A DNA stretch of 64,000 nt from assembly GCA_964639765.1 (NCBI GenBank), contig CAZXEN010000002.1, positions 33,338 to 97,337 of the forward strand, given 5' to 3'. Below, piece after piece: positions 4,585 through 63,680 of this stretch. Under the pieces are notes generated by a model. It was not told the origin of the DNA, did no database searches, and was given only the letters and a program-made list of their open reading frames with translations. Source of the stretch: an uncultured Bacteroidaceae bacterium (GTDB lineage Bacteria; Bacteroidota; Bacteroidia; Bacteroidales; P3). The stretch's first letter is position 1. Every line of letters starts with the position of its first letter. The translations under genes and the position numbers were made by a program.

Positions 4585-4986
4585 ATGACACCAAAAAAAA
4601 TTGAACATATTGGTATAGCAGTTTCCAATTTGGATGAAGCTATCAAATATTGGGAAAATGTAATGGAATTAAAATGCTATAACATTGAAGAGGTAGCAGA
4701 CCAAAAAGTAAGAACTGCTTTCTTTAAAGTAGGAGAAATAAAGATAGAACTTTTGGAACCTACATGTGAAGAAAGTACAATTGCAAAATTTATTGCAAAC
4801 AAAGGACAGGGAGTTCATCATATTGCTTTTAAGATGGAAGATACAAATCATGCTCTTAAAGATGCAGAAGAAAAAGGCGTCCGTCTTATAGACAAACAAG
4901 CAAGAAAAGGAGCAGAAAATCTAAATATAGGTTTCTTGCATCCAAAATCAACTTTAGGAGTTTTAACAGAGTTTTGTTGTGAATAA
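4585..4986 (+). CDS. mce: Methylmalonyl-CoA epimerase (VOC/glyoxalase fold)
   Basis: 133-aa ORF starting IEHIGIAV, followed by GQGVHHIAF. It sits immediately upstream of the methylmalonyl-CoA carboxyltransferase gene. Confidence 0.85.
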   Translation: MTPKKIEHIGIAVSNLDEAIKYWENVMELKCYNIEEVADQKVRTAFFKVGEIKIELLEPTCEESTIAKFIANKGQGVHHIAFKMEDTNHALKDAEEKGVRLIDKQARKGAENLNIGFLHPKSTLGVLTEFCCE

Positions 4987-5047
4987 ATAATTGGTTATTT
5001 AGGACTGAAAAGTTCTAAATAACTTTTTTATAATACATTTATATAAT

Positions 5048-6607: not shown

Positions 6608-6622
6608 AAACACTATACGCCA

Positions 6623-7591
6623 ATGAAAAAAAGTATATTTAAATTATTCATTGCATGCGGTTTGGTGTTGATGAGTCTTAGTGTTTTCTCTCAAGAGCAG
6701 AAGGATAAAGCTTGTTGTACCAATAATACACTTGCTAATGCTTTTGAAGATCCATTGATACCGCAAACTTTTGCAGTGGATAGTAAATCGCAGACTATGG
6801 TGGTGATAGATACTCCCGAAAATACCATAGCTATTCTCTCACGTACCGAAAAAGGATATGAACTTAGCGACACTTTTCTTGTAGATGTTATAAAAGGAAG
6901 ACACGACGTTCAGTTTATCTACAAGCCAAAAAGTATAGCACTTTATGACAACAACATAATATTCCTTGCTTCAAACCGAGATTCTTCTTATATAGGAGTA
7001 GTGGATTTGAAAGGCAATGTTGTCAAGATAACCAATAAATTTGTCGGTGCTGCTAATGCTTTTTCATACGATAAAATAAATAAACGTTTATATGTAGCAG
7101 GACTAAATCCTTCCGGATTCAATGTATTTGACATAGATGTTTCAAAAGGTTTTGAAAACATAAATATTGACACTGTTTCTACAACAGAAGCTGCGTATAA
7201 GATATATAAAATACCTCGTAAAGCAGAAGAAATCAAGAAACATGACCCTTATGGTTTAGGTTTGACAATGATAGCAATGGGTACTGTTTTTTCTGCATTG
7301 GTGATTATTTCTATCATACTTATGGGATTTGCAAAGACATTGGTTAAACTTCAGGAGAAGAAGAAAAAGAAAACTGTTGTTGCGACAACTGTCAATGAAA
7401 CTGCATCTCAAAAAGAAGACAAGAAATATATAAGCGGAGATGAGTTTGCGGCTATTGCTGCTGCCATATACATATATGATAAAGAACTGCATGATGAAGA
7501 AAATGCTGTCCTTACTATTACAGAAGTGAACAGAAGATATTCTCCTTGGAGCAGCAAAATGCATAATATGAACGTTTATAGAAGACGATAA
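6623..7591 (+). CDS. OadG/MmdD-like decarboxylase small subunit fused to an N-terminal ~190-aa exported domain
   Basis: 322-aa ORF. Reading N to C: a signal peptide, an exported domain, a single TM helix (LGLTMIAMGTVFSALVIISIILMGF), a Lys-rich linker, and an OadG-like tail (GDEFAAIAAAIYIY...SPW). It lies between mmdA and the biotin carrier gene. Confidence 0.6.
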   Translation: MKKSIFKLFIACGLVLMSLSVFSQEQKDKACCTNNTLANAFEDPLIPQTFAVDSKSQTMVVIDTPENTIAILSRTEKGYELSDTFLVDVIKGRHDVQFIYKPKSIALYDNNIIFLASNRDSSYIGVVDLKGNVVKITNKFVGAANAFSYDKINKRLYVAGLNPSGFNVFDIDVSKGFENINIDTVSTTEAAYKIYKIPRKAEEIKKHDPYGLGLTMIAMGTVFSALVIISIILMGFAKTLVKLQEKKKKKTVVATTVNETASQKEDKKYISGDEFAAIAAAIYIYDKELHDEENAVLTITEVNRRYSPWSSKMHNMNVYRRR

Positions 7592-7613
7592 TTAAATTTA
7601 AAACACAGAAAAG

Positions 7614-8054
7614 ATGAAAAATTATAAATTTAAAATACACGGTACAAATTATTCTGTTGATATAAAAAGTGTTGAAGGACAGACTATAGAGTTGGAACTT
7701 AACGGTACTCCTTATACAGTGGAAGTAGATAAAGAGATAAAGCAGACTCCTAAAAAAGTCTTGTTGACAAATCGTCAAGCATCTCCTTCTCCTAAAGCTA
7801 TAGAGACTGTTGCTGCTGTTACTCCAAAAAGCAGCAGTGGTGCAAACAGTATAAAATCACCTTTGCCAGGAACAATATTAGACGTCTTTGTAAATGTCGG
7901 AGATACTGTAAAGACTGGTCAGAAGCTTATGCTCCTTGAAGCAATGAAGATGGAAAATCAGATAGATGCAGACAGAGACGGAGTTGTTAAATCTGTAGGA
8001 GTAAGAAAAGGTGATGTTATTATGGAAGGTGATGTCTTGGTAACAATAGAATAG
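7614..8054 (+). CDS. mmdC: Biotin carboxyl carrier protein of methylmalonyl-CoA decarboxylase
   Basis: 146-aa ORF with an Ala/Pro/Ser linker and the biotinyl-lysine motif EAMKMEN. Confidence 0.85.
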   Translation: MKNYKFKIHGTNYSVDIKSVEGQTIELELNGTPYTVEVDKEIKQTPKKVLLTNRQASPSPKAIETVAAVTPKSSSGANSIKSPLPGTILDVFVNVGDTVKTGQKLMLLEAMKMENQIDADRDGVVKSVGVRKGDVIMEGDVLVTIE

Positions 8055-8073
8055 AGTAGAGGAGGATACGGTT

Positions 8074-9267
8074 ATGTTATCATTATTAATCAGTTTGACA
8101 GCACAGGGAGATAAGATGGGCTTTTTGGATTTTGTATCTGCCCAGCTTGTACAATTCTTCCACTATACATCGTTTGCTAATTTTGAGATAGGACACCTTA
8201 TAATGATACTTGTTGGTTGTTTCTTCATCACTTTAGCAATAACCAAAGAATATGAACCAATGCTTTTGATACCTATAGGCTTTGGTATGTTGATAGGAAA
8301 CATTCCTTTCTTTCCTGGCTTAAAGATAGGCATCTATGAAACTGGTTCTGTTTTGAATATTCTTTATCATGGAGTACAAAATGGCTGGTATCCACCTTTG
8401 ATATTTCTTGGTATAGGAGCTATGACAGATTTTTCTGCCTTGTTAAGCAATCCTAAACTGATGTTGTTAGGTGCTGCAGCGCAGTTTGGTATTTTTGGAG
8501 CATATATGGCTGCTTTGGCTTTAGGTTTTCTTCCTAATGAGGCGGGAGCAATAGGTATAATCGGAGGAGCAGATGGTCCTACCGCCATATTTATTTCTTC
8601 CCAGCTTGCACCTGAACTTATGGGGGCCATAGCTGTAAGTGCTTATTCATATATGGCTTTGGTTCCTGTTATTCAGCCGCCTATTATGAGAGCCTTGACA
8701 ACTAAGAAGGAAAGACTTATAAGAATGAAACCTCCACGTCAAGTCTCCAAAACAGAGAAGGTTGTATTTCCTATAATAGGACTGCTTCTTACTTGTACAA
8801 TAGTTCCAAGCGGTATTCCATTGTTAGGTATGTTGTTCTTTGGCAACCTGTTGAAAGAAAGCGGTGTTACAAAACGTTTGGCAGTTACTGCTTCCAATGC
8901 AATCATAGATATTTGTACTATACTTATTGGACTGACTGTTGGATGTTCTACTCAAGCAACAACATTCCTTACAGGAAAATCAGTAGGAATCTTTGCTTTA
9001 GGTGCATTCTCATTTATCATTGCAACAACGGTAGGTGTTTTGTTTGCCAAATTAATGAATGTATTTCTGAAGGAAGGTAACAAAATCAATCCGCTTATTG
9101 GTAATTCTGGTGTCAGTGCTGTTCCAGATGCAGCCAGAGTTAGTAACAATGTAGGATTGGAATATGATAATAAGAATTACTTATTGATGCACGCAATGGG
9201 ACCAAATGTAGCCGGCGTTATCGGTAGTGCTGTTGCTGCAGGTATTTTATTGGCATTCTTGAAATAA
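8074..9267 (+). CDS. mmdB: Na+-translocating decarboxylase beta subunit (OadB/MmdB family)
   Basis: 397-aa polytopic membrane ORF with blocks LLIPIGFGMLIGNIP and GIIGGADGPTAIF typical of OadB. The start could instead be the ATG at 8116 (MGFLDFV). Confidence 0.9.
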   Translation: MLSLLISLTAQGDKMGFLDFVSAQLVQFFHYTSFANFEIGHLIMILVGCFFITLAITKEYEPMLLIPIGFGMLIGNIPFFPGLKIGIYETGSVLNILYHGVQNGWYPPLIFLGIGAMTDFSALLSNPKLMLLGAAAQFGIFGAYMAALALGFLPNEAGAIGIIGGADGPTAIFISSQLAPELMGAIAVSAYSYMALVPVIQPPIMRALTTKKERLIRMKPPRQVSKTEKVVFPIIGLLLTCTIVPSGIPLLGMLFFGNLLKESGVTKRLAVTASNAIIDICTILIGLTVGCSTQATTFLTGKSVGIFALGAFSFIIATTVGVLFAKLMNVFLKEGNKINPLIGNSGVSAVPDAARVSNNVGLEYDNKNYLLMHAMGPNVAGVIGSAVAAGILLAFLK

Positions 9268-22339: not shown

Positions 22340-22882
22340 CTATGCTTCCCAGAATCTCTCTGTCCTGTGTTTGTCTTGCATGACTTTTCGTGCAAGGACA
22401 AAGAAATAGTCTGACAAACGGTTAAGATATTTCAAAACATTGGAATCCAATCCATGTTTGTCACTTACTTCCACGCATAGTCTTTCACACTTTCTGCACA
22501 TAGTTCTCGCTAAATGCAACAGACATGCCGTTTGGGAAGAAGAAGGTATGACAAATGCCTCCAGTTTTGGAAGTTCCTCTTCCATGGCATCTATCTTTCT
22601 TTCCAGAAACATAATGTCACTGTCCATGATAGCACCCATTTTGTCAAGCATGTCTTCTTTTTCACAGGCAACTATGCTTTCACATATAAACAACTTCTTC
22701 TGTATTACAACAAAAGCATTCTTGTAGTCGTCCGTCTTCAGCAAAGTGTCGATATATCCCATAAGACTGACAAGGGAATCTATCTCTCCGTATGCCTGTA
22801 CTCTAATGTCATACTTCTTTACCCGTGTTCCACCTACCAAAGAGGTGGTTCCTGTATCACCTGTCTTCGTATATGTAGCCAT
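22340..22882 (-). CDS. pduO: ATP:cob(I)alamin adenosyltransferase, PduO type
   Basis: 180-aa ORF with an N-terminal TKTGDTGTTSL motif and the helical-bundle size typical of PduO-type ATR. Confidence 0.85.
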   Translation of the reverse strand: MATYTKTGDTGTTSLVGGTRVKKYDIRVQAYGEIDSLVSLMGYIDTLLKTDDYKNAFVVIQKKLFICESIVACEKEDMLDKMGAIMDSDIMFLERKIDAMEEELPKLEAFVIPSSSQTACLLHLARTMCRKCERLCVEVSDKHGLDSNVLKYLNRLSDYFFVLARKVMQDKHRTERFWEA

Positions 22883-35971: not shown

Positions 35972-35979
35972 CAAAGATA
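35972..35979 (-). promoter_or_regulatory. -7 box TATCTTTG for pepO
   Basis: Exact TAnnTTTG match 40 nt upstream of the start at 35932. Confidence 0.45.
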
Positions 35980-36080: not shown

Positions 36081-36114
36081 AAAAAATACAATGGATAAGT
36101 AAATATTTACTTAT
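36081..36114 (-). terminator. Candidate terminator of the fdx-hydS-PP2C-fdx operon
   Basis: A perfect 20-nt palindrome ataagtaaat/atttacttat (36095-36114) lies 10 nt after the stop. On the minus strand a T6 run follows within 8 nt. The stem is AT-rich, so this is tentative. Confidence 0.35.
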
Positions 36115-36123
36115 TCTGTGATT

Positions 36124-36360
36124 TTATATCTGTTTTTCTATTTCTTCTACAATTTTTTCTGGAGTTGCTTTTTCTATAATCACTTCACCAACTTTGGCGT
36201 ATGGAGGTTTAGCATTGTCTTCTTTGCAACCAAGACACGAAGAAGAAAGCACTGTTATTTTGTCGTGCAGGTTTTGAGGAATATAATTCTTCCATTGAGC
36301 CAGTTGACTACCTCCCATAAGATAGCAATATGTCCCTACACAAATTCGTACTGTTACCAT
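36124..36360 (-). CDS. Thioredoxin-like [2Fe-2S] ferredoxin-like small protein
   Basis: 78-aa ORF with four Cys arranged CVGTYC ... CLGC (Cx4C-x38-Cx2C). It is the last gene of the hydS cluster. Confidence 0.6.
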   Translation of the reverse strand: MVTVRICVGTYCYLMGGSQLAQWKNYIPQNLHDKITVLSSSCLGCKEDNAKPPYAKVGEVIIEKATPEKIVEEIEKQI

Positions 36361-36421
36361 GAGTCTGTTATTATTTTTAATTGTTCCTTATATTATATAA
36401 CGTAATTTTTTGTCCAATATT

Positions 36422-37618
36422 CTAAATAAACTCCAAATTTATTGTTTTTAGCAGTTTATTTTCTATCAAACGTTTTATTCTTTTCATCACATTACGTCTT
36501 ATTTCCAGCTCAACAGGTAAGGAAGGATCTTGGTGTGCTACGTTTATTTTAGTTCCTACGAGAATATCTATAATATCGGCATCCATAACATATTTCAAGA
36601 TATTCCATGCCGGGTCGTTCTGTGGCAAGTCATTGAATTTATCCTCTTCCAGCAGTTTGCTTAATGCTCCAAGAGTGATAATTCCTTCAGTGACCAAGTC
36701 TATACCCTCAATGTGTGACTCAGGAGGCAGACCTGAGGCTATTTTGTCCAAATCCATATCCACTTCTATCTCCCGGTTCAACTCTCTTGCTATGATTTGT
36801 GAGGTTGTCCCTCCACAGACTATTTTCTTGCCATCATAGGAAGAGATAACCTCTGCCAGATATTTGTCCTTTTCTTCACTGAAAGGAGGTCCTGAACAGA
36901 TAAGAAGCTTTCTTGGTTCACGTACATAAATACTTACACAAGATATATCATCTTTGGATTTGAAACCATCATTCATTTCAGCCTTTCTTACAATTCTTCT
37001 GGCCAACTCTCTTGCAGATATATTACTGTTTTGTCTCAACAGGTTTTCTATAAAGCCTTCCACTCCATCATCCCAGCCAAATGGCATATCCATTTTTCCC
37101 ATTCCACTCTGAGAAACACCATCTGAATAAACCACAAGCCTATCACCTTTTTTCAGTGAAAGTTCTGTAAGTTTAAGTATTCTTTCGTATGTGTTTATCT
37201 CTGCATTCTCATTAATCTTATATGTCTTGGGATTAAGATGCTCTACCTTTCCGTTTCTGATAAGAAGCAATGGCGGAGTATCAAACTCTGCTATCTTTGT
37301 TTCTCCGTTTTGATCTATGTCTATAATAGTAAAAGTAGCGTATGAAATATTTCTTTTGCTGTCAACAGGAAGAGTGTCCATGATAGTACGAGCAGTACGC
37401 ATTATAGGTTCTCTCTTGATAGAAAAATTCATAGCCATGGAGGCCGTCATAGTACTAAGTACATTGGCTTTTATTCCGCTGCCTAATCCATCGGACAATA
37501 CAGCTATACAACGTTCCTGATTAGCTACCTTGTGTAAAAGGACAGTATCTCCACAAGCAAAGTTACCATTCTTGTTTATCTGAAAACAGCCAGCCTCTAC
37601 AAATATATTTTCTGCCAT
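36422..37618 (-). CDS. PP2C/SpoIIE family Ser/Thr protein phosphatase with an unassigned ~170-aa C-terminal domain
   Basis: 398-aa ORF with PPM motifs FACGDT, VLSDGLGSGIKA and VVYSDGVSQSG. It starts 16 nt after the hydS-like stop. Confidence 0.8.
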   Translation of the reverse strand: MAENIFVEAGCFQINKNGNFACGDTVLLHKVANQERCIAVLSDGLGSGIKANVLSTMTASMAMNFSIKREPIMRTARTIMDTLPVDSKRNISYATFTIIDIDQNGETKIAEFDTPPLLLIRNGKVEHLNPKTYKINENAEINTYERILKLTELSLKKGDRLVVYSDGVSQSGMGKMDMPFGWDDGVEGFIENLLRQNSNISARELARRIVRKAEMNDGFKSKDDISCVSIYVREPRKLLICSGPPFSEEKDKYLAEVISSYDGKKIVCGGTTSQIIARELNREIEVDMDLDKIASGLPPESHIEGIDLVTEGIITLGALSKLLEEDKFNDLPQNDPAWNILKYVMDADIIDILVGTKINVAHQDPSLPVELEIRRNVMKRIKRLIENKLLKTINLEFI

Positions 37619-37634
37619 AGGAAGATAGTTTTTA

Positions 37635-39419
37635 TTACATAGTTATTGCATCCTCTGGATTGACTTTATTGCCCGAGTCTTGACTGTGGGATTCTATGAT
37701 GGAATTCAACATACTCTCCGTATAAGAAGCATTTTCTCCAAGCAAGAAGGCTATCTGCTGAACAATCTTCATATTCTGCTTGATAACTTCCTGTGTTCTT
37801 GTAAGAACAATATCTTTTCTGACCTCCGGAGCATGCATATTCTCTATTATGCCACAAACCTGCTGATGATCCTGTACGGAAAAAATGCTCAAACGATAAT
37901 AATTGTCATCCTCTCTTATATCCTGTTCAACCAAATCCTTGCAAGTGTCCAGCACATTTGAGAAATAGTTGTAGAAAGACAATGCTTTTGTAATATCAAC
38001 GCCAGATAAACCAGGTTTCAAATCATATAATTCTTCCAAATCTCCTCCAAGTGTGGTTGCGAATTTTTTATTAGCCTGCACTATTCTTAGATTTGCATCA
38101 ACTATGACAACTCCCTGAGGCATCTTTTTTAGAAGTATGTTGGTTTTGTCACGTGCTACTCTACGCATATAAGACACGCACATATCATTCTCTGCCAAAC
38201 CGTCCAAAAGTGCAGTGGCGAATGATTTACAGTTATCATAGCCACAACCACCACAATTCAAATAGTCGCTGTCACTTATCTTGTTTACACGTTTAAGAAT
38301 TTCCACTATGTCTTTCTGGGTATAGTCTCTTCGCTCAAAAGTATCTATATTGGAAAAGTCTGTTGTTATATCTGTCTGGAAAAGATCTTTGTATGCATCA
38401 CTTTCTTCACATGCAGTGGTATTATCAAATATCTGTGTACGTTTTACCAAAGAAGATGTCTTCTTTATAGTTGCAGGTCCCATGACACAACCACCAGAAC
38501 AACCTAAAACCTCCACAAAATATTTCTTTGAATTGTCAAACTTCTCCACATCATCCAAGACACTCATTACATTCTTAACACCGGAAACTGTAAGAAGTTC
38601 GCAATCCTTTGAAGTCAATTTACAATGGTTTGCAACGTTTCCCAATTCTTTATCCATCATACAGGAAAGCATTCCGCCATCGGTAGGATAAAGATTGCCT
38701 ATACCGGCTTTCATAGGAATAAACTTGTCTTCAGCATTTGGTTTTTGAAACTCCAAATCAACTCCCAAGACCTCAAAAACTTCATTTATTTCCCTAAAAG
38801 TCAAAACAAAATCCAGTTTGTTGTCTTTCAGTTGCAATTCTGTTTTCTTTGCAATGCACGGTCCCACAAAACATATCTTGCAGTCAGGATAATGTTTCTT
38901 AAGGAAGGTAGCATGGGCTTCTACAGGTGAAGCAATTGGGGACACTTTATTTGAGTGCTGAGGATAATATTTTCGTATGAGCTGCACTGTGGCAGGACAA
39001 CAAGAGGAGAAATAAACACCATTTGGTTGCTTGTCAATCCATTCTCTTGCTTTAAGAGCAACAAGTTCCGCACCAAGAGCTGTCTCACTGACTCCCATAA
39101 AACCTGCTTCCTTAAAGGCTGCTATCAGACTGCTGTTGTCTATGTCACAGAACTCACTCAGATAACTTGGAGCCAAGGAAACTACGATTTTTTCATTGCT
39201 TCTTAAAGCACGGATGATAGATTCCACATCATTTCTGACCTTCTTTGCATTTGATGGACATACTTCTACACATTTGCCGCACCATATACATTTTTCAGGT
39301 ACTATACTTGCTGAATTATCTTCAAATTTTATAGCCTTTACTTCACAGACTTTGACGCATTTGTAACAATCCTGACAATTGTTTTTCTCTGTATAAATAG
39401 GATAGCTTTTAGTATTCAT
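37635..39419 (-). CDS. HydS-type (putative sensory, group C) [FeFe]-hydrogenase homologue with C-terminal PAS domain
   Basis: 594-aa ORF. It has two CxxCxxCxxxC motifs (CQDCYKCVKVC, CIWCGKCVEVCP). The H-domain motifs are SSCCPATV, GPCIAKKTE and EVLGCSGGCVMGP. An extra Cx2Cx4Cx16C motif (CGGCGYDNC...C) follows. The C-terminal part is PAS-like (MPQGVVIVDANLRIVQANKKFATTLG). Confidence 0.8.
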   Translation of the reverse strand: MNTKSYPIYTEKNNCQDCYKCVKVCEVKAIKFEDNSASIVPEKCIWCGKCVEVCPSNAKKVRNDVESIIRALRSNEKIVVSLAPSYLSEFCDIDNSSLIAAFKEAGFMGVSETALGAELVALKAREWIDKQPNGVYFSSCCPATVQLIRKYYPQHSNKVSPIASPVEAHATFLKKHYPDCKICFVGPCIAKKTELQLKDNKLDFVLTFREINEVFEVLGVDLEFQKPNAEDKFIPMKAGIGNLYPTDGGMLSCMMDKELGNVANHCKLTSKDCELLTVSGVKNVMSVLDDVEKFDNSKKYFVEVLGCSGGCVMGPATIKKTSSLVKRTQIFDNTTACEESDAYKDLFQTDITTDFSNIDTFERRDYTQKDIVEILKRVNKISDSDYLNCGGCGYDNCKSFATALLDGLAENDMCVSYMRRVARDKTNILLKKMPQGVVIVDANLRIVQANKKFATTLGGDLEELYDLKPGLSGVDITKALSFYNYFSNVLDTCKDLVEQDIREDDNYYRLSIFSVQDHQQVCGIIENMHAPEVRKDIVLTRTQEVIKQNMKIVQQIAFLLGENASYTESMLNSIIESHSQDSGNKVNPEDAITM

Positions 39420-39429
39420 GATATAGAGG

Positions 39430-39678
39430 TCAATGTTTGAAAGTTTTATCTAAAATCTCTTCTAATTTTATCTTATCCACTCCTTTATGGACTTCGCTGT
39501 TTATGGTTACGATAGGACCTTCGCCACAAAGACCGCTGCAAAGCTGTCCTTTGAAATCCACGTCTGCTTTAAGGTTATTGTCTTTAAGGTACGCTTGTAT
39601 AAATCTGAGATTCATATTATTGCCATGAGCAAAACATGAACTGCCCAAGCATATACTGATATTTGTTTTTTCTGCCAT
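39430..39678 (-). CDS. Thioredoxin-like [2Fe-2S] ferredoxin (NuoE-like fold)
   Basis: 82-aa ORF with the pattern CLGSSC ... CSGLC (Cx4C...Cx3C). It ends 10 nt upstream of the hydS-like gene. Confidence 0.7.
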   Translation of the reverse strand: MAEKTNISICLGSSCFAHGNNMNLRFIQAYLKDNNLKADVDFKGQLCSGLCGEGPIVTINSEVHKGVDKIKLEEILDKTFKH

Positions 39679-39716: not shown

Positions 39717-41669
39717 TTATCTTATAAGGTTAAGTATTTCATCCAACTGAAGGTCTTTGCCTAATATGTTTCCATCATTATCCACAAGGATATTGCTTGG
39801 AAGAGATTTTATATTATAAAGCTTTACAACAGCAGAGTTCCAACGTTTCAAGTCAGACACATTTTCCCATTTGCCTATTCCGTCTGTTTTTATCGCTTCC
39901 TGCCATGCATATCTGTTGTCGTCCAAAGAAACAGAAAGAATATTAAGGTTTTTATTCGCTTTGTAAATTCTTAGGTAATCAATGTTTTTTCTTCTTGAAT
40001 TATTGTCCCAAGAAGCCCAGAAAGATATCAGGGTATAGTTTTTGTTCTTTATATAGGAATACAGGGAAACAATATTTCCTTTGTCATTCTCCAAAGAAAA
40101 ATCCCTTATCTTGTCTTTTTGATATTCGCTTACGCTGTTGTTTGTTTCAGACAGTTGTTCTTTTAGAAGGGAGTATTGGAACATTGTTGTTGCCTCACCT
40201 CTAAGAGAATTAACTGCTTTCTGCATATCCTTGTCAGACATGTAAGGATAGAGATAACTGCTTAGGATAAATGGTGAATATATGCTTGTAGGGTTATCCA
40301 AGACATAGTTTGAAAGACATTGCATAGGGTTCTTTTCCTTGTTGCATGAGTTGGCAATGCGAGAAAAGGCATCTTGTGATGGAGAACCTTCTACGCTTAT
40401 GTTGTCCATATCTTTTCTTTTGCCGCTTATTTTGATATTGTTGTTACCCATAAAGAATGATATACTGCCATCTTTTACAGGAAAATCTATCATAGCCATA
40501 CATATTCTGTCAACCTTTCCACTGAAAGAAAAGTTGCCATTGTTTATTCTGCTTTCTATCACTTCTTTTTCCCCGCCTTCTTTTAGCAATGTAAGTTTTA
40601 TTATTCCTTCTTTTATACCTTCTACATTACCGCTTATATTATAGCTCTCATTGTCCAAAAGCTCAAACAGTTTGTCAGAAAGAGCCTCCTTGTGGATATT
40701 TCTTGCAACTATCTTGCCCGTATTATCCACAAGAACATTGTCCGGCAAGGATTTTATCATATAGTCTTTGACTGGCTTGGATTCCCACATCTGAAAATCG
40801 CACACATTAGTCCAAGGTATGTTGTTATCCTTTATTATGTTTTTCCAAAGGGTCTTGTTGTTGTCCAAACTTACAGCATAGATGTCAAAACCTTTGTTTT
40901 TGTATCTTTCATAGATAACCTTTTCGTCGTGCAGCTGCTCCATATAATCTTTTGACCAAGAAGCCCAAAAGTCAATCAAGACATAGTTTTTCGCTCTTAT
41001 GAAAGATGCAAGATTTACTTTCTTGTTGTTGATATCATTCAAGGAAATATCGGGAGCTTTCTTGCCTTCTGCTATCTTCTCCAAGGATTTATCCCTGTTT
41101 CTGAGTTGTTTGTAGTAATATCCGGAAGTCGCTTTCCCTTTTAAAGTATTCAAATGTCTGTCCATTTCATCAAAGGTCCAATAATAAGAAAGATAACTTG
41201 CAATGATATCACAAGTGAATATATCTTCAGGATTGTTTACCACCCAGTTTTCCAGACGTGCGAGATAGACATCATAGTCTTCTGTTCCTTGTGGCTCTAC
41301 AATGGAATACCATCGAAGGGTTTCCTTGGCATTCTTGAATTTAGGCTTGTCTGTTTTTTTATCTATCTCCATAGTCATTTGTAATGATGGTTCAAGATAA
41401 AGTCTGTATTGTTTCTTGCCGTTAATAGTAAGAAGGGCAGGCATTGTTTCTGTTGCGTTTCCCCTGAAAACAAACTGACCTTTCTTATCCAGCAAAGTAG
41501 AATCCAATCTTTCGTTACCATCTGGCAGATATACTCTAAGAGTAGCATAGCCAGAACCTTTCTTTATCTGTCCATCAATGGTATAACCTCTGCTTGTCAT
41601 AACATATTGCTGAGAATATCCTACAAATGCAAGCAAAGTAAATATTAATGTAAAAACTATTCTTTTCAT
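39717..41669 (-). CDS. Tandem-duplicated TlpA/AhpC-like thioredoxin-fold lipoprotein lacking CxxC in both modules
   Basis: 650-aa ORF with a signal peptide. It has two modules, each an N-terminal beta domain, a helical linker and a thioredoxin fold. The canonical FWASWCxPC is replaced by FWASWSKDY and FWASWDNNS. Confidence 0.7.
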   Translation of the reverse strand: MKRIVFTLIFTLLAFVGYSQQYVMTSRGYTIDGQIKKGSGYATLRVYLPDGNERLDSTLLDKKGQFVFRGNATETMPALLTINGKKQYRLYLEPSLQMTMEIDKKTDKPKFKNAKETLRWYSIVEPQGTEDYDVYLARLENWVVNNPEDIFTCDIIASYLSYYWTFDEMDRHLNTLKGKATSGYYYKQLRNRDKSLEKIAEGKKAPDISLNDINNKKVNLASFIRAKNYVLIDFWASWSKDYMEQLHDEKVIYERYKNKGFDIYAVSLDNNKTLWKNIIKDNNIPWTNVCDFQMWESKPVKDYMIKSLPDNVLVDNTGKIVARNIHKEALSDKLFELLDNESYNISGNVEGIKEGIIKLTLLKEGGEKEVIESRINNGNFSFSGKVDRICMAMIDFPVKDGSISFFMGNNNIKISGKRKDMDNISVEGSPSQDAFSRIANSCNKEKNPMQCLSNYVLDNPTSIYSPFILSSYLYPYMSDKDMQKAVNSLRGEATTMFQYSLLKEQLSETNNSVSEYQKDKIRDFSLENDKGNIVSLYSYIKNKNYTLISFWASWDNNSRRKNIDYLRIYKANKNLNILSVSLDDNRYAWQEAIKTDGIGKWENVSDLKRWNSAVVKLYNIKSLPSNILVDNDGNILGKDLQLDEILNLIR

Positions 41670-49553: not shown

Positions 49554-52394
49554 ATGAAAAGAGTTCTAATAAGCATTTTTTTACTTGCATTGTCGCTTAA
49601 CATTATGGCTCAACAGGCTATAATAAGCAAACAGAAAGGCAGAACAAAATATGTCAGACACCAGGTTGAAAATATGACCCTGAAAGAAATGGTCGGTCAA
49701 ATGATCATGATAGATTCATATGCTTTGGCAGACAGCAACTACTACAAAAATGTCTTGTATCAGATAGACAGCAACAATGTAGGCGGCGTATGTTTCTTCA
49801 AAGGCACACAAAAAGACCTGCTGAAACTGAACAGACTCTATGATGAACATGCAAAGATACCTCTTTTTGTTGCTATTGACGGAGAATGGGGTCTGAATAT
49901 GAGACTGACAGACATAGAGACGTTTCCTGTGGCTCTTTCTTTGGGAGCCCTGCCAAAAAACAAATATCATCTGGTAAGGGATATGGCCGAGGTGATAGCA
50001 GAACAATGCAATTCACTTGGCATACACATCAACTTTGCTCCTGTAGTGGATATCAATGTCAGAGCGGACAATGCCGTAATAAACATGCGTTCGTTCGGTC
50101 AGGACAAATACAAAATAAGCCTGTTGGCAAGAGAATACGTCAAAGGTCTGCAGGAAAACGGAGTAATGGCTGTTGTAAAACATTTCCCGGGACATGGAGA
50201 CACAGAGGTTGATTCCCATAAAGCAACACCTCAGATAACACACTCCAAAACCTTTATAGACAGTATAGACACCTATCCTTTCAGATACAATATTGACAAA
50301 GGAGCCTGGGGTGTCATGGCAGGGCATCTTCAGGTTAATGCCCTAAGTCCTGATTCCCTAAAACCAGCTTCAATAAACAAGGATATCATAGACAGTTACT
50401 TGGTAAAGAAGCTTAACTTCAACGGACTGGTTTTCACTGATGCCATGAACATGAAAGGACTTACAAACCTGTATGGTGAAGGTGAAGCGGAAGTATTGGC
50501 AGTATTGGCGGGAGTAGATATCATCCTTATGCCGGAAAACACAGACAAAGCCATACAAGCTATATTGAAGGCAGTGGAAGACGGCCGTATTTCAAAGGAA
50601 CTGATAAAGAAAAAATGTGAAAAGATACTTGAATGGAAGTATGATATGGGTCTTTACAAAAAACGCGGCAAGTATTCCATGCCGGATGCCCATACTGTTG
50701 CCAAAACAAAAAGAATAAATACCCAGATAGCAGAAAACGTACTTACATTTATAGGCAAAAAACAAGAAAAACTTATACCTGAGAACATTACTTCAAAGGA
50801 CAGCATTACTATGATTGTCATCGGTGGTGCAAACTATGATTCCCTTATAGACAACCTTAAACCATATAACGTAAAACCTGTATACATATCCTCAAAAATG
50901 AAACATAAGGATATAGACAGCATAGTTTCCGGCATAGACTCCAACATAAGTGTCCTTACTGCTTTCGGCGGAGCAAGATTTTCCTCTTCTAAAGCTCATT
51001 ACGGCATAGCAGACAACACCATATACAGCCTCAAGACAATAGAAAAACGCTTCAAGGACAACAATCTTGTGCTTATGTTTGCAAATCCCTACGTCTTCAA
51101 GATGATAGACTCTTCATACGCATGCAGAGGCTTCGTCGTAGCATACGAGAACAATGCATACACACAGCGTGCCATGGCCCGTCTTCTGAAAGGAGAGATA
51201 AACGCCAATGGAAGTCTGCCTGTAAGTGTCAAAAGAGGCTCCATGAGTGATATGGAAGAAGATGAAATATCCGACGAAGACAAATTCTACATGGATAACA
51301 ATATAAGCATCTCTGTTGTTCATCAAATTGATTCCATAGCCTTGAAGGGCATAAAGGAAAAAGCCTATCCGGGTTGTCAGATACTAATAGCAAAGGACGG
51401 AAAGATAGTGTATAACAAAAATTTCGGCTACTACACCTATGACAACAAAAAGGAAGTATCCTACAACACCATGTATGACATTGCATCGCTTACCAAAGTG
51501 ATGGCTACTACGCTTGCTGTGATGAAACTGTATGAACAAAACATGATAAACCTTGATGCTGCAGTATCCACTTATATTCCGGAGCTGAAAAAACTTGAGG
51601 CCGGCGAATTGACTATAAGAGAACTGCTTTCACACTACACTACCCTGCCAGCCACATATCCGTTCCAGCGCAAGAAAATAAAGCCCAACAATGTGCATGC
51701 AGGCATACTAAAAGAATTCAAGAATGTACCTGTCAAGCCTAAAAAATATGTTTATTCGGACCTTAACTTCCTGTTGCTGCAATATGCTGTGGAGAACATA
51801 GTAAAAGAAGATCTGGACAAATATCTTCAAAGGGAATTCTACACACCGCTGAAACTTCAGAACACTACATTCAATCCTCTGTTGAACGGTGTATCCACTG
51901 ACAACATTGCTCCAACTGAAAATGACACTGTTTACAGACATGAACTGATATGTGGAACAGTTCATGACCCGTTAGCTTATCTCAACAACGGAGTATGTGG
52001 CAATGCAGGTTTGTTCAGTACAGCGACAGACTTGTTTGCCATCACTCAGATGTTGCTTAACAAGGGTACTTACGATGGACACAAATACCTAAAAAGCTCT
52101 ACCGTGGATGCCTTTAACCGCAGATACTATTCTGACAAAGGAATACGCAGAGCCTTGGGATTTGACAAACCGCTCATCAACAGCAAATCTGAACACTGTT
52201 CCAGATATGCTTCCCAGAGCAGTTATGGTCATAGCGGATTTACAGGCACTTATCTTTGGATAGACCCTCAAAACAACACCATAGTTATTTTTCTTTCAAA
52301 CCGCGTTTATCCAACTGCCACTCCAAACAAGCTGGCTCAGATGAATATTCGTACGGATATAAACGACCTTGTCTATAAAATGTTTGTAAAATAA
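49554..52394 (+). CDS. Fusion of a GH3 beta-N-acetylhexosaminidase (NagZ-like) and a class C beta-lactamase-fold serine hydrolase
   Basis: 946-aa ORF with a signal peptide. The GH3 N-domain has KHFPGHGDT. The C-terminal half has SxxK (ASLTK), YSD and HSG motifs of the AmpC/PBP4*-like fold. Confidence 0.85.
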   Translation: MKRVLISIFLLALSLNIMAQQAIISKQKGRTKYVRHQVENMTLKEMVGQMIMIDSYALADSNYYKNVLYQIDSNNVGGVCFFKGTQKDLLKLNRLYDEHAKIPLFVAIDGEWGLNMRLTDIETFPVALSLGALPKNKYHLVRDMAEVIAEQCNSLGIHINFAPVVDINVRADNAVINMRSFGQDKYKISLLAREYVKGLQENGVMAVVKHFPGHGDTEVDSHKATPQITHSKTFIDSIDTYPFRYNIDKGAWGVMAGHLQVNALSPDSLKPASINKDIIDSYLVKKLNFNGLVFTDAMNMKGLTNLYGEGEAEVLAVLAGVDIILMPENTDKAIQAILKAVEDGRISKELIKKKCEKILEWKYDMGLYKKRGKYSMPDAHTVAKTKRINTQIAENVLTFIGKKQEKLIPENITSKDSITMIVIGGANYDSLIDNLKPYNVKPVYISSKMKHKDIDSIVSGIDSNISVLTAFGGARFSSSKAHYGIADNTIYSLKTIEKRFKDNNLVLMFANPYVFKMIDSSYACRGFVVAYENNAYTQRAMARLLKGEINANGSLPVSVKRGSMSDMEEDEISDEDKFYMDNNISISVVHQIDSIALKGIKEKAYPGCQILIAKDGKIVYNKNFGYYTYDNKKEVSYNTMYDIASLTKVMATTLAVMKLYEQNMINLDAAVSTYIPELKKLEAGELTIRELLSHYTTLPATYPFQRKKIKPNNVHAGILKEFKNVPVKPKKYVYSDLNFLLLQYAVENIVKEDLDKYLQREFYTPLKLQNTTFNPLLNGVSTDNIAPTENDTVYRHELICGTVHDPLAYLNNGVCGNAGLFSTATDLFAITQMLLNKGTYDGHKYLKSSTVDAFNRRYYSDKGIRRALGFDKPLINSKSEHCSRYASQSSYGHSGFTGTYLWIDPQNNTIVIFLSNRVYPTATPNKLAQMNIRTDINDLVYKMFVK

Positions 52395-52575: not shown

Positions 52576-53085
52576 ATGAAAAAAGTACTTATGATGGTAG
52601 TTATTGCTACAGCAATGATGTTCGCTGCAAACAATGCAAATGCACAAATCAGCGTTCGCGCAGGATTTTTGAACGACATGTATGGTGGAGACTTGGATGC
52701 AACTGAAGCAGGTTTCTATCTTGGCGCAAGTTACAACATGCAGGCTTTCGGAGACTTCAACGTTGCTCCTGGAGCTTATTTCGCTTACAGCAAAGACAGA
52801 ATGGATTTAAGAGTTCCTGTACTTTTGAACTTCGGACTTAACCTTACCAACGATTTAGGTTTGGTTTTGTTTGCTGGTCCTCAAGTAAATATAGGTCTTG
52901 CTGGTGATATTTATGACAACTACAAACGTTTCGGTCTTGGTATTACTTTTGGAGCAGGATTAACTTATCAGAAAGTAAGCTTTGAAGCAGGTTATTCATT
53001 AGGTTTGCTTAACCAATGGGACGGGGCAGGAGACTTTAGTGCTAAATTCAACCAGTTAACTATTGGTTTAGGTTACAAACTATAA
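52576..53085 (+). CDS. Small outer-membrane beta-barrel protein (8-stranded, OmpW/Opa-like porin family)
   Basis: 169-aa ORF with signal peptide ..ANNANAQ and a Gly/aromatic-rich alternating pattern. Confidence 0.65.
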   Translation: MKKVLMMVVIATAMMFAANNANAQISVRAGFLNDMYGGDLDATEAGFYLGASYNMQAFGDFNVAPGAYFAYSKDRMDLRVPVLLNFGLNLTNDLGLVLFAGPQVNIGLAGDIYDNYKRFGLGITFGAGLTYQKVSFEAGYSLGLLNQWDGAGDFSAKFNQLTIGLGYKL

Positions 53086-57084: not shown

Positions 57085-57150
57085 AAAAACTTCATACGTT
57101 TTTTTTCAAAAAAAGTTACCTAATATAAAGCATAATGTCCAAAAATATTG

Positions 57151-57158
57151 TATTTTTG
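57151..57158 (+). promoter_or_regulatory. -7 box TATTTTTG for the 57183 gene
   Basis: Exact TAnnTTTG match 25 nt upstream of the ATG at 57183. This argues against the longer ORF start at 57135. Confidence 0.5.
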
Positions 57159-57182
57159 CAGTCAATAAAAAATACGTATTTT

Positions 57183-58598
57183 ATGAACCGTAACAGAATA
57201 AAAGCATATATCCTTATATTGGTCTCTTGTATGCTACTTAGTGTCAATGCACAAGTGAAAGACTATAAGAATCTTCCTGATTTTGACAATCAAGACTATC
57301 AGCAGCATCTTAATTTTATGATAACGCCAGGTGCAATGGTTGGTCAGACTCTTTATCTTCAGGAAGTGGAAGATGAATTGATTAATTATTTTTATGTAGG
57401 TGCTGTCGGCGTACATGAAAAAGGAGACAAATCCGGTGTTACCTTCTATAAACTAACACGCATGAGTAAAGACAAAATGCAAAGTCTTAAAGGTAAGTGG
57501 TTTATTGTTGTGGATTATGTAGCAGATCAGTTTGCCTATAATCGTATATATGATGCGGTGAAAGAGAAAAGAGATTTCTCCAAGATGCGTCGTCCTTTTA
57601 TGAAGTTGCTTATTGGAAATACCAAAGATACAATCTTTTATGAGTATCAGAATTTCTACAATCAATATCATTTTCCTTTCACTCCAATGTCATACTACAA
57701 CCATGCCAAGAATGAATATCCGCATGAAACATACGCTTTTGAAGACCTGAATCTTATAACATACGATACCAATGCAAATTATGCTATAGTACCAAACCAA
57801 CTTATAGGCCAAAAGCTTACACTTCCGGAAGTTACAGATGCAACCCTTGAGCGATTGTACAATGGTATGCGTCTGCATAACTATCCTGACGACAGCAGAA
57901 AGTATTCTTTTACGGAATATCCTATAGCAAAAGGTAAGATGCTCAAAAATAAAACTTTCATAGTAAAGGATATAGCCTTTGATGCAGAAAGTCTTACAAA
58001 CGTATATCTTAAATTGGTACAGCCAAATTCAAGAGACACTATCTACTACAAATATCCTACAAAACACGAAAGACATCTGTTTTCTTTCGTTATAGACAGC
58101 TATCTAAAGAAATTACGTCAGACTTACAAGGACAGGGAATTTACTGTCAGAGGTGACAAGTATGCTTTAACCGTTACAGACATAAAAAGAAAGAATAAAC
58201 TCACTCTTCATCAAGGAGAAGTTTTCCATTGTCTTGATGTAGTGGTAAAGGATGGTAAGTTTCAAATGCTTATGCGTACCGAAAAAGGCAGAAAGTTTTA
58301 TATGCCAGAGGATTATGAATTAGGAGATATGCTTTCTTTCAACAAATACCTGTCAACTGAAAAGATAGAGAAATATAGGGATACCTATCCTACCTACTAT
58401 AAAGCCATACTTCAAAAAGAACTTATAAAAGGTATGACCATGGACATGGTAGAACAAAGCTGGGGAAAACCAGAACGCAGCGTAAAGACCAATTTCGACG
58501 GTAGCGACCAGCAATGGTTCTATATGGGAAACATATACATCATATTCAAAAACAATATCCTACATCGTGTAGCCATGATTCCAAAAGAGATGAGATAA
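57183..58598 (+). CDS. Exported hypothetical protein with an internal ~170-aa duplication and a BamE/SmpA-like C-terminal module
   Basis: Signal peptide ..LSVNAQ. Paired segments include ITPGAMVGQTLYLQEVEDEL/IVPNQLIGQKLTLPEVTDAT, LKGKWFIVVDY/LKNKTFIVKDI and TKDTIFYEY/SRDTIYYKY. The C-terminus reads GMTMDMVEQSWGKPE. Confidence 0.6.
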   Translation: MNRNRIKAYILILVSCMLLSVNAQVKDYKNLPDFDNQDYQQHLNFMITPGAMVGQTLYLQEVEDELINYFYVGAVGVHEKGDKSGVTFYKLTRMSKDKMQSLKGKWFIVVDYVADQFAYNRIYDAVKEKRDFSKMRRPFMKLLIGNTKDTIFYEYQNFYNQYHFPFTPMSYYNHAKNEYPHETYAFEDLNLITYDTNANYAIVPNQLIGQKLTLPEVTDATLERLYNGMRLHNYPDDSRKYSFTEYPIAKGKMLKNKTFIVKDIAFDAESLTNVYLKLVQPNSRDTIYYKYPTKHERHLFSFVIDSYLKKLRQTYKDREFTVRGDKYALTVTDIKRKNKLTLHQGEVFHCLDVVVKDGKFQMLMRTEKGRKFYMPEDYELGDMLSFNKYLSTEKIEKYRDTYPTYYKAILQKELIKGMTMDMVEQSWGKPERSVKTNFDGSDQQWFYMGNIYIIFKNNILHRVAMIPKEMR

Positions 58599-62576: not shown

Positions 62577-63680
62577 TTATTCTTTCAGAGAAAGAAAATA
62601 CTCATCTATAAGCTTTTGTGCTATTATATAAGCAGAAACTTTATTGTCAAGTATGTCGTCCTTTGCTATCTCAAGTTTTTGTTTTGCAACCTCGCTCTCA
62701 TAAAACCTATCCAGCAGAGTCTGTGAAATACTTTCAGAAAGAATCCTAAGATTCTGGGTATTACGGTTTTTATAGAAGAAACCTGTCTTTTTTGTCATTT
62801 CCACATAGTCAAGAACGTTCTGCCAGATGTCATCTATACCCATTTTGGAATAAGCAGAACAAGTAAAAACCTTTGGTTGCCAGCCACTCTCCTGAGGCGG
62901 AAACAGATGAAGCGCATTCCTGTAATTCACGGCGGCAAGTTCCGAACGTTCCTTTTCCTTGCCTTCTGCCTTATTGATAGCTATTGCATCTGCCATTTCC
63001 ATAATACCTCGTTTGATGCCTTGCAGTTCATCACCAGCATTGGCCAATTGAAGCAAAAGAAAGAAATCCACCATGGAATGAGCCAGGACTTCACTCTGTC
63101 CGACACCAACAGTCTCCACAATGACCACATCAAAGCCGGCAGCTTCGCAAAGAATTATTATCTCTCTTGTCTTTCTTGCGACACCGCCCAAGCTTCCTGC
63201 TGAAGGAGAAGGACGAATAAAAGCATTGGGATCGGAAGACAACAGCTCCATACGTGTTTTGTCTCCAAGAATACTTCCTCCGCTTCTTTCACTGCTTGGG
63301 TCTATTGCCAAAACAGCAACCTTGTGTCCTTGGGAAGTAAGTTTCTTGCCCAACACCTCAATAACAGAACTTTTTCCTACTCCTGGCACTCCTGTAATAC
63401 CTAATCTTATGCTGTTGCCTGAATGTTTCAGACAGCGTTCTATTACCTGCTGTGCCAAAAGCTGATGTTTATACAGGCTGCTTTCCACCAAAGTTATCGC
63501 CCTTGCCAAGATTGTACGGTTACCGCTCAGGATACCTTCCACATAATCATCGGCAGACAACTGCTTTACCTTCTTTACTGTTTTGAGAAAGTCCTTGTTT
63601 ACACCCTGTCTCTGGTCTGTACCTTGGGTAACCTTGAGTGCAGAGTTAGGATTGTTCTTGTCTATTACTTGGTCGTACAT
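62577..63680 (-). CDS. meaB: Methylmalonyl-CoA mutase-associated G-protein chaperone MeaB (ArgK)
   Basis: 367-aa ORF with P-loop GITGVPGVGKSS, VETVGVGQSE and NKAEG (NKxD-like) motifs. Confidence 0.9.
   Translation of the reverse strand: MYDQVIDKNNPNSALKVTQGTDQRQGVNKDFLKTVKKVKQLSADDYVEGILSGNRTILARAITLVESSLYKHQLLAQQVIERCLKHSGNSIRLGITGVPGVGKSSVIEVLGKKLTSQGHKVAVLAIDPSSERSGGSILGDKTRMELLSSDPNAFIRPSPSAGSLGGVARKTREIIILCEAAGFDVVIVETVGVGQSEVLAHSMVDFFLLLQLANAGDELQGIKRGIMEMADAIAINKAEGKEKERSELAAVNYRNALHLFPPQESGWQPKVFTCSAYSKMGIDDIWQNVLDYVEMTKKTGFFYKNRNTQNLRILSESISQTLLDRFYESEVAKQKLEIAKDDILDNKVSAYIIAQKLIDEYFLSLKE

Follow-up and report, generated by a model that had tools for sequence, protein, structure and literature searches.

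To what does a putatively sensory [FeFe] hydrogenase report when it is encoded next to a protein phosphatase and no further signalling partner is in sight? This question is raised by four genes on the minus strand of a 64,000-nucleotide stretch of DNA (contig CAZXEN010000002.1; the whole stretch is hereafter the window) from an uncultured Bacteroidaceae bacterium, which encode, from upstream to downstream, a small thioredoxin-like [2Fe-2S] protein, a HydS-type hydrogenase, a PP2C/SpoIIE phosphatase and a second small [2Fe-2S] protein. H2 sensing and electron disposal in fermenting anaerobes bear on gut gas, rumen methane and the engineering of biofuel strains, and a paper of 2026 describes the interaction partners of sensory [FeFe] hydrogenases as still to be identified.

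Judged by its predicted proteins, the cassette is a Bacteroidales version of the HydS/Hfs-type regulatory system, corresponding to the phosphatase-linked Group C3 of the [FeFe] hydrogenases in HydDB. A subgroup of this kind had been named in the original prediction, a first reading of the DNA letters that our analysis follows up, and C3 is in fact defined in that scheme, as putative (PMC5037454). The class is already known, because homologues of the cassette proteins exist in Ruminococcus albus and the gene order is that of hfsABC in Thermoanaerobacterium. The gene order, the domains, the conservation of ligand and metal motifs, the homology to R. albus proteins, the linkage to hydrogenase, alcohol dehydrogenase, Rex and maturase genes and the purifying selection on the cassette are directly supported. 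We favour, with a probability of roughly 0.6, a role in which an H2 or redox sensor would set the activity of the phosphatase and in this way tune fermentative electron disposal through an unlinked target.

The cassette and its sensory-type hydrogenase

The cassette consists of four intact, closely spaced open reading frames (ORFs) separated by 10, 16 and 61 nt, the phosphatase gene starting 16 nt past the hydS stop codon. The 82-aa [2Fe-2S] protein (39430..39678; positions are those of the window, and all cassette features lie on the minus strand) stands in the position of HfsA and is followed by the 594-aa putative sensory hydrogenase HydS (37635..39419), the 398-aa phosphatase (36422..37618) and the 78-aa [2Fe-2S] protein (36124..36360). 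These genes, their coordinates and their gaps match exactly those first read from the sequence, and every motif that had been quoted from HydS and the phosphatase is present.

HydS opens with an N-terminal dicluster of two CxxCxxCxxxC [4Fe-4S] motifs (residues 9-58; 39246..39395) matched by Fer4_10, Fer4_7 and Fer4, followed by the H-cluster domain (residues 77-315; 38475..39191; Pfam Fe_hyd_lg_C, 161.8 bits), a Cx2Cx4Cx16C cluster motif (residues 387-415, the motif itself at 389-414; 38175..38261; Pfam FeS PF04060, 33.4 bits) and a PAS-like region (residues ~430-540; 37800..38132). The H-domain motifs read SSCCP (138-142), GPCIAKKTE (186-194) and EVLGCSGGC (303-311), and all four H-cluster ligand cysteines are there, at 141, 188, 307 and 311 (C300, C355, C499 and C503 of CpI, whose numbering is used below for active-site positions). 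These four residues and the cysteines of the Cx2Cx4Cx16C motif are invariant in 81/81 HydS sequences. The PAS assignment is marginal and the match partial: PAS_8 scores 21.4 bits on the full-length protein and 23.3 bits on the isolated C-terminal 210 residues (cut-off 21.8), covers residues 430-468 only (430-462 in the full-length scan) and aligns with just the first ~35-40 positions of the profile. PAS_8 is nonetheless matched by 38/40 HydS family members, and the PAS-like segment proposed at the outset did reach a PAS profile on the isolated C-terminus. Behind it lies a segment, VQQIAFLLGENASYTESMLNSI (residues ~545-571; 37707..37787), in which the columns Q170, A173, G177, E178 and L187 (numbering of alignment A3) are invariant or near-invariant. 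Only the cysteine motif is better kept in the C-terminal part of HydS, and no Pfam family matches the segment; possibly it forms a docking or signalling helix or an interaction surface.

HydS has more than 4800 homologues. It scores 117 bits with the curated NCBIfam model of Group A and 211 bits with that of Group B1, far below the respective cut-offs of 406 and 450 bits, and among the R. albus proteins it matches HydS best (253 bits) and HydA2 less well (135 bits); its best solved relatives, at 72-112 bits, are catalytic H-domains, none of them a HydS structure. With the H-cluster cysteines, the Fer4 dicluster, the Cx2Cx4Cx16C motif, a partial PAS domain and scores that fit neither Group A nor Group B, the 594-aa protein is, as predicted from its domains, of the Group C (M2f) HydS type, which bears out the architecture first proposed for it.

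Conservation of the HydS-phosphatase core

A scan for the phosphatase family, taking one genome per species, found it in at least 598 species genomes from more than 10 phyla, which include Bacteroidota, Spirochaetota, Acidobacteriota, Verrucomicrobiota, Desulfobacterota, Synergistota, Riflebacteria, Aminicenantia and Alphaproteobacteria and among them several cultured strains. The best 80 loci were compared (L-numbers below label single loci); 72 had enough sequence to read the gene order, and the side downstream of the phosphatase was tallied in 69. HydS is encoded directly upstream of the phosphatase in 71/72, often with overlapping stop and start codons, and the upstream small [2Fe-2S] gene precedes HydS in 69/72. 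Recurring in 71 of 72 loci across many phyla, this order is not due to chance, and the adjacency of hydS and the phosphatase gene on which the first interpretation depended is a family trait.

Downstream of the phosphatase, 47 of the 69 loci carry a second small [2Fe-2S] paralogue together with a further [FeFe] hydrogenase of ~470-490 aa, here called Hyd2; four have Hyd2 only, 18 have neither, and the small paralogue is found in other loci only with Hyd2 (47 with, 0 without). Hyd2, present in 51/69 loci, passes the NCBIfam Group B model TIGR04105 (535 and 509 bits, against 577 for R. albus HydA2 and a cut-off of 450) and, almost without exception among the 55 sequences, retains C299, S319 and M497. 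Group B hydrogenase has recently been reported to dominate H2 production in the gut. Recurrent but not universal neighbours are AdhE or Fe-dependent alcohol dehydrogenase, Rex, HydE, HydF, bifurcating-type HydA/HydB and sigma54 activators. Among the 45 loci with at least 8 kb of flanking sequence on both sides, 40 carry a catalytic hydrogenase and five have none nearby, cultured Bacteroides sp. 214 and Marinifilum breve being among these orphan modules. All-against-all clustering of the ORFs of the 80 loci revealed no conserved kinase, STAS protein or candidate phosphoprotein as a neighbour. Family-wide, what our comparison adds is the near-invariant 2Fe-2S/HydS/PP2C core, its usual linkage to a Group B hydrogenase, a pair of mini-ferredoxin paralogues, the finding that no kinase or STAS protein is conserved with it and a highly conserved C-terminal domain (CTD) in the phosphatase.

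Related systems and a model for the output

A tblastn search of a plasmid collection led to megaplasmid pRUMAL01 of R. albus 7, where a cluster in the order Rex, adhE, phosphotransferase, (2Fe-2S), (2Fe-2S), HydS, SpoIIE phosphatase and HydA2 holds counterparts of all four window proteins. The two HydS are 29.6% identical over 585 aa (E = 3e-80), a match that extends through the PAS region, and the phosphatases 31% over 406 columns (E = 5e-56), a span which implies that the CTD is common to both. On the other hand, R. albus 7 adds an APH/Bud32-like kinase, AdhE, Rex and the Group B HydA2, none of which is found in the window, and it has both small ferredoxins upstream of hydS, whereas the window has one on each side. 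Both HydS have Cys at the C299 position, while the M497 position is occupied by S in R. albus 7 and by L in the window. A phmmer search retrieved no relative of the R. albus phosphotransferase from the window ORFs or the 80 loci, and this gene appears, from homology, to be lineage-specific and not a defining feature of the system. The R. albus cluster is said to have been proposed as an H2-sensing system by Zheng et al. and by Greening et al. In co-culture with an H2 consumer it is down-regulated 111-fold (PMC6776011).

The second relative is known from Thermoanaerobacterium saccharolyticum / thermosaccharolyticum, in which hfsABCD encode a small HfsA, the PAS-containing HfsB, the Ser phosphatase HfsC and the ferredoxin-linked hydrogenase HfsD (PMC11837493). 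The window order equals hfsABC, the homology being traced only through R. albus and the published descriptions; the window has no counterpart of hfsD, a Group B hydrogenase, and possesses an extra downstream [2Fe-2S] paralogue. Deletion of hfsA or hfsB leads to more hydrogenase activity and adhE expression in a manner dependent on hfsC/D, the loss of hfsB being described as deregulating hfsD, and these genetics alone provide functional evidence for a regulation of hydrogenase and adhE by the module. The original prediction of a largely uncharacterised regulatory system therefore needs qualification: the papers that we searched make no mention of PP2C together with sensory hydrogenases, but the R. 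albus homologues and the hfs genetics already exist.

Two characterized enzymes allow HydS itself to be compared. By its description, the HydS of Thermotoga maritima (TmHydS; in Group C, M2f) has the same plan of two [4Fe-4S] clusters, H-domain, Cx2Cx4Cx16C motif and PAS, and likewise Gly at M353; its residues at C299 and M497 are Ala and Ser, against Cys and Leu in the window HydS. Thermoanaerobacter mathranii HydS (TamHydS; M2e) shares with the window protein the N-terminal clusters, the C-terminal cluster motif and Leu at M497, but it belongs to Group D and has no PAS domain, whereas the window HydS is assigned to Group C and carries the PAS-like region. As for the phosphatase, RsbU/RsbP/RsbX and SpoIIE share with it the PP2C fold and the motifs that bind metal, and its nearest relatives of solved structure are SpoIIE, 3pu9 and RsbX. 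The window module differs from partner-switching systems in that no linked STAS protein or anti-sigma kinase was found in it, the presumed regulatory domain of the phosphatase is C-terminal and the PAS domain resides on a separate protein. RsbP is a precedent for the control of a PP2C by PAS. A similar concept is embodied in HoxBC-HoxJ/HoxA of Cupriavidus (Ralstonia), where a low-activity hydrogenase serves as H2 sensor with a PAS-containing partner and controls hydrogenase expression; this is, however, an [NiFe] system with an unrelated metal site and unrelated proteins, and its output is a histidine kinase with a response regulator instead of a Ser/Thr phosphatase.

By analogy with the Thermoanaerobacterium genetics, the R. 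albus transcriptomics and the biochemistry of TmHydS and TamHydS, we consider it somewhat probable that sensing and output proceed in the following way. HydS, matured by HydEFG encoded elsewhere, would carry an H-cluster that reacts slowly with H2 and would exchange electrons by way of the [4Fe-4S] pair at its N-terminus and of both small [2Fe-2S] proteins. Its H2 or redox state would be relayed through the C-terminal cluster, the PAS domain and the post-PAS segment to the PP2C, probably by direct contact with the CTD, and the PP2C would alter the Ser/Thr phosphorylation of an unlinked target. Electron disposal would be adjusted as a consequence, for example through the level or activity of a Group B hydrogenase or of an alcohol dehydrogenase. 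In the lineage of the window the module would act in trans, because the hydrogenase gene that usually comes next is not at the locus.

Several points weigh against such a role. The sensory function of these hydrogenases is still called putative (PMC8924675), and H2 signalling from HydS to a phosphatase is directly evidenced in no organism. The C-terminal cluster of TamHydS, admittedly a Group D enzyme devoid of PAS, did not respond to H2 (PMC13104023), and the PAS match of the window HydS is marginal and partial, as noted. The output step is wholly inferred, since no kinase, STAS protein or phospho-substrate is conserved nearby, and the 64 kb yielded no hydEFG and no catalytic hydrogenase. Moreover, the window HydS may outpace TmHydS in turnover, since it keeps S319, E282 and the equivalent of C299, the proton-relay cysteine. 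The locus itself does not settle the question of H2 sensing; what narrows the problem is the comparison that it prompted. Cultured carriers of the module exist (Marinifilum breve, Bacteroides sp. 214, Treponema sp. OMZ 840, Carboxylicivirga and Williamwhitmania taraxaci), and the uncultured locus of the window makes the question no more testable than they do.

The small [2Fe-2S] proteins and the nature of the signal

Both small proteins are predicted to be thioredoxin-like [2Fe-2S] ferredoxins of the NuoE/HydC-type fold, at ~80 aa against the 145 positions of the PF01257 profile. The 82-aa protein reaches 37.2 bits with Pfam 2Fe-2S_thioredx (cut-off 24.8) and has the cysteine spacing Cx4C-x31-Cx3C, while the 78-aa protein remains below the cut-off (22.2 bits) with the spacing Cx4C-x29-Cx2C and was assigned by clustering; because the upstream and downstream proteins cluster in one family they are paralogues. 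They match fdx2 (30% identity, E = 7e-11) and fdx1 (27% identity, E = 2.5e-7) of R. albus, respectively. All four cysteines are 100% conserved in the upstream paralogues (n=74); the cysteine columns are also conserved in the downstream ones, with the Cx2C variant in 14/51.

That HydS has two small [2Fe-2S] proteins of its own, conserved along with it, lends some weight to another view of the signal, namely that HydS reads reducing pressure and not H2, sampling the ferredoxin or NAD(P)H pool through these proteins and its N-terminal clusters, with the H-cluster as a vent or reference electrode and the PP2C still as output. The recurrence of Rex and alcohol dehydrogenase genes at related loci, the persistence of the cassette in the window without an adjacent hydrogenase gene and a PAS domain in HfsB that possibly responds to redox potential (PMC11837493) all fit this view. 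Nevertheless, the H-cluster ligand set, invariant in all 81 HydS, is hard to explain without H2 chemistry, and the R. albus cluster responds when a syntrophic partner removes H2. We regard sensing of the redox pool in place of H2 as an unlikely alternative that deserves to be kept in view, although the two may be inseparable, since H2 and redox pressure are coupled in fermenters.

The active site of HydS

Alignments with CpI reveal four departures in the window HydS, M353->G, M497->L, E279->K and R286->K, whereas C299 is retained as Cys140 and S319 and E282 are kept as well. The replacement of M497 by L, of M353 by G and of both E279 and R286 gives the active site a sensor-like appearance, and characterized sensory enzymes of low turnover carry substitutions of this kind (PMC10055695, PMC8163306). 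Cys at the C299 position is the minority state, seen in 19/81 HydS and, according to the literature, in 17% of sensory sequences (PMC10055695). Cys140 and Ser160 are a clade trait of the Bacteroidales relatives of the window, the Cys at C299 being also found in the R. albus and Monoglobus HydS.

The retained Cys, Ser and Glu could suggest that HydS is instead a working catalytic hydrogenase of low rate, complexed with the [2Fe-2S] proteins, regulated by the PP2C and replacing the Group B enzyme; both characterized proteins, TmHydS and TamHydS, do turn over H2, and no other hydrogenase was found in the 64 kb. We think this quite improbable. The Cys/Ser pair, being a trait of the clade, is equally present in locus L039, which has Hyd2; with M497->L, E279->K and R286->K the protein deviates at positions that hardly vary, or do not vary at all, in the catalytic Hyd2; a Cys added at the C299 position of TmHydS lowered activity (PMC10055695); and the PAS domain and phosphatase link are hallmarks of regulation. 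In particular, Cys140/Ser160 is not a compensation for the loss of Hyd2, given that L039 shares the pair while still having Hyd2, and a HydS turned catalytic substitute after such a loss was rejected on this ground.

A cassette without its usual hydrogenase gene

The window retains the small downstream paralogue in the absence of Hyd2, a combination found in 0/69 other loci, and a tblastn search with 53 Hyd2 sequences matched only HydS in the 64 kb, with neither Hyd2 nor a remnant of it there or in the 191-nt spacer that follows the cassette. The initial description, with no visible signalling partner, was right in that none was found, but it overlooked the main anomaly of the locus, which is that the usual Group B hydrogenase gene is missing. 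The statement that kinase, STAS protein, catalytic hydrogenase and hydEFG are not seen in the 64 kb agrees with our Pfam and NCBIfam scans of the large ORFs: in none of the other large ORFs of the window did Pfam detect a kinase of the HATPase type, a STAS protein, HydF or a further hydrogenase, and neither the HydE nor the HydG models of NCBIfam match the one radical-SAM ORF.

Loci L005 and L006, with 85% HydS identity and the same synteny as the window, are likewise without Hyd2, whereas L003 and L039, 74-75% identical, have Hyd2, at a recJ-linked locus, and flanks that differ on both sides. In L005 (13624-18488) two N6_N4 DNA methyltransferase genes and two unassigned ORFs (600 and 325 aa) lie exactly between the cassette and pepO; this insert is absent from L006 and the window, which makes the cassette-pepO junction a site of gene gain and loss.

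Compared with L006, the ratio of nonsynonymous to synonymous substitution (dN/dS) is 0.037 for HydS, 0.025 for the phosphatase and 0.063 for the 78-aa protein, against 0.013-0.084 for flanking housekeeping genes, with infB, smpB and pepO among the genes compared; these values are approximate, since dS is saturated or, for some gene pairs, undefined. The cassette is under strong purifying selection and is not decaying. One might imagine a relic without function, in which the adjacent Group B gene has been lost or has moved elsewhere, from a small paralogue standing without Hyd2 as in none of the 69 other loci and from flanks unlike those of the nearest Hyd2-bearing relative on both sides. Such a relic is very improbable in view of four intact ORFs with every conserved ligand and motif kept, dN/dS of 0.025-0.063 (at saturated dS) as low as that of infB, smpB and pepO, and 5/45 other long-flank loci equally devoid of a nearby hydrogenase. 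What distinguishes this locus, then, is its orphan state, in which the small paralogue is kept without a hydrogenase gene and maintained under selection. Lineages without an adjacent hydrogenase gene suggest that the module can act in trans.

The phosphatase and its C-terminal domain

Pfam SpoIIE covers only residues 35-231 of the phosphatase (58.6 bits), and the catalytic domain, of the RsbX/SpoIIE type according to Pfam and Foldseek, extends over residues 1-231 (36926..37618), with no N-terminal regulatory domain. Its motifs GD (23-24), SDGLGSG (42-48) and YSDGV (164-168) are in place, the GD, DGLGSG and SDG motifs aligning to those of RsbX and SpoIIE. The AlphaFold 2 (AF2) model of the protein has a pLDDT of 80, and Foldseek relates the PP2C domain to SpoIIE (5mqh, E = 4e-15), 3pu9 (E = 1e-13) and RsbX (E = 7e-10). 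D24, D43-G44, D166-G167 and D223-D224 are invariant in 26 Bacteroidales phosphatases, and the metal-binding aspartates are kept in 85-92 of 98 diverse relatives (86-92 for D24, D43, D166 and D224). The protein is predicted to be a minimal PP2C of the RsbX/SpoIIE type.

The CTD comprises residues 232-398 (36425..36925), with the motifs (C)GGTT, TEG, D348 and GTxxN. Modelled alone it reaches a pLDDT of 85.2 and a pTM of 0.83, with alternating beta and alpha elements, and the model depicts an alpha/beta fold of the Rossmann/flavodoxin-like kind. Foldseek found nothing significant for it in the PDB (best E = 7e-3, TM about 0.3-0.45), and a profile search of the PDB sequences gave no match. The impression that the last ~170 residues could not be assigned is thus shared by our analysis, in which these 167 residues fold confidently with no structural match. 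The Foldseek matches were only generic ones to Rossmann, MGS-like and UbiX folds (E >= 7e-3, TM <= 0.45) and yielded no fold assignment.

An exhaustive search of 1.84 billion representatives found the CTD in 839 clusters, and in most of the 150 best matches it forms the C-terminal ~170 aa of a protein of ~380-430 aa, the shorter ones possibly being fragments. The R. albus and Monoglobus phosphatases have it too, and a cluster look-up of distant CTD proteins returned a single name, "SpoIIE family protein phosphatase", from Fibrobacterota. Conservation is higher in the CTD than in the catalytic domain: of the 20 positions that are the same in >=95% of the 98 relatives, 16 belong to it, G269-G270-T272, E311-G312, D348, G355 and N359 among them. 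By contrast, Cys268 is replaced by Ser or Ala in 25/98, which makes a phospho-cysteine mechanism unlikely; a phospho-cysteine P-loop domain (PTS-EIIB, LMW-PTP) was rejected for this replacement and because Foldseek gave no such match. The glycine-rich loop and the invariant acidic residues suggest a site for a phosphate or metal ligand.

It is tempting to speculate that the CTD is a new switch that binds a ligand or partner, and that HydS and PP2C-CTD form a self-contained device coupling H2 or redox state and a metabolite signal directly to dephosphorylation. The proposal draws on the 839 clusters, the conservation above that of the catalytic core, the lack of a solved relative and the GGTT motif with E311, D348 and N359, and we hold it to be improbable as it stands. 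Equally doubtful is its corollary, that no dedicated kinase or STAS protein would be needed and that the target would be a metabolic enzyme or the Group B hydrogenase system. If it were true, this would be a signalling logic undescribed for PP2Cs, and the lineage of the window would be evidence that the device acts on more than the gene next to it. In any case, the highly conserved CTD is the obvious next place to look.

Variant loci and the surroundings of the cassette

In five loci of Bacteroidales / Lentimicrobiaceae (L013, L015, L018, L021 and L041) a bifunctional AdhE of 885 aa is encoded between the small 2Fe-2S gene and Hyd2, an insertion that parallels the hydS-adhE linkage of R. albus and the regulatory link of hfsB to adhE in Thermoanaerobacterium. 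Four Marinifilum / Labilibaculum loci (L042, L043, L048 and L083) have two tandem HydS-PP2C pairs and no Hyd2, and their second HydS (~617 aa), with Lys at C299, Ser at M353 and Phe at M497, looks like a distinct sensor subtype. In Ozemobacteraceae / Riflebacteria (L045 and L075), bifurcating-type HydB and HydA precede 2Fe-2S/HydS/PP2C/small/Hyd2, and there follow a second HydS with clear PAS matches (PAS_9, 33 bits) and a shorter PP2C of 382 aa. HPr-Ser-P is a known PP2C substrate in Firmicutes, and on a plasmid of Monoglobus pectinilyticus (L088, 11077-11334) an HPr phosphocarrier gene, encoded on the opposite strand, lies close downstream of Hyd2 with a small 4Fe-4S gene in between; it was seen at this locus alone.

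Around the cassette, scans for sigma-70 promoters and G+C-rich terminators gave counts only at the level of shuffled sequence. A perfect 20-nt AT-rich palindrome, ATAAGTAAATATTTACTTAT (36095..36114, minus strand), followed by a T-run, lies just past the 78-aa gene; it was missed by the scan for G+C-rich terminators, its RNA fold amounts to -6.8 kcal/mol, and it may represent a weak, terminator-like end of the cassette. The next gene is pepO, and the 191-nt spacer before it holds this weak AT-rich palindrome together with a -7 motif of the Bacteroidetes type (TAnnTTTG), TATCTTTG (35972-35979, minus strand), 47 nt before the pepO ATG. A second such motif, TAAATTTG (36434-36441, minus strand), is contained in the final codons of the phosphatase gene and precedes the ATG of the 78-aa gene by 81 nt. 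No TAnnTTTG-type motif occurs in the 150 nt upstream of the first cassette gene, and the cassette may for this reason be read through from the upstream gene, which ends 38 nt away. That gene (39717-41669, minus strand) encodes a TlpA-like protein of 650 aa with two tandem units of DUF4369 and AhpC-TSA/Thioredoxin_8, kept at 653 aa in L005/L006; its CxxC sites read FWASWS and FWASWD, both devoid of the active-site cysteines, in keeping with the inactive appearance ascribed to it beforehand.

The propionate-forming Bacteroidales background that had been assumed is consistent with genes of the succinate-to-propionate pathway at 4585-9267 (plus strand), 22340-22882 (minus strand) and 62577-63680 (minus strand), which comprise methylmalonyl-CoA epimerase with a four-subunit operon of the methylmalonyl-CoA/oxaloacetate decarboxylase type, cobalamin adenosyltransferase and MeaB. 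Two ORFs of the window, of 487 aa (57135-58598, plus strand) and 169 aa (52576-53085, plus strand), match no Pfam or NCBIfam family at E <= 1e-5. A 946-aa fusion of glycoside hydrolase family 3 with a beta-lactamase-fold domain is encoded at 49554-52394 (plus strand). Finally, in a Bacteroidales metagenome-assembled genome (L001, 15524-20584) the hydS-Hyd2-prismane cluster is followed, a few kb downstream, by a type II CRISPR Cas9-Cas1 locus.

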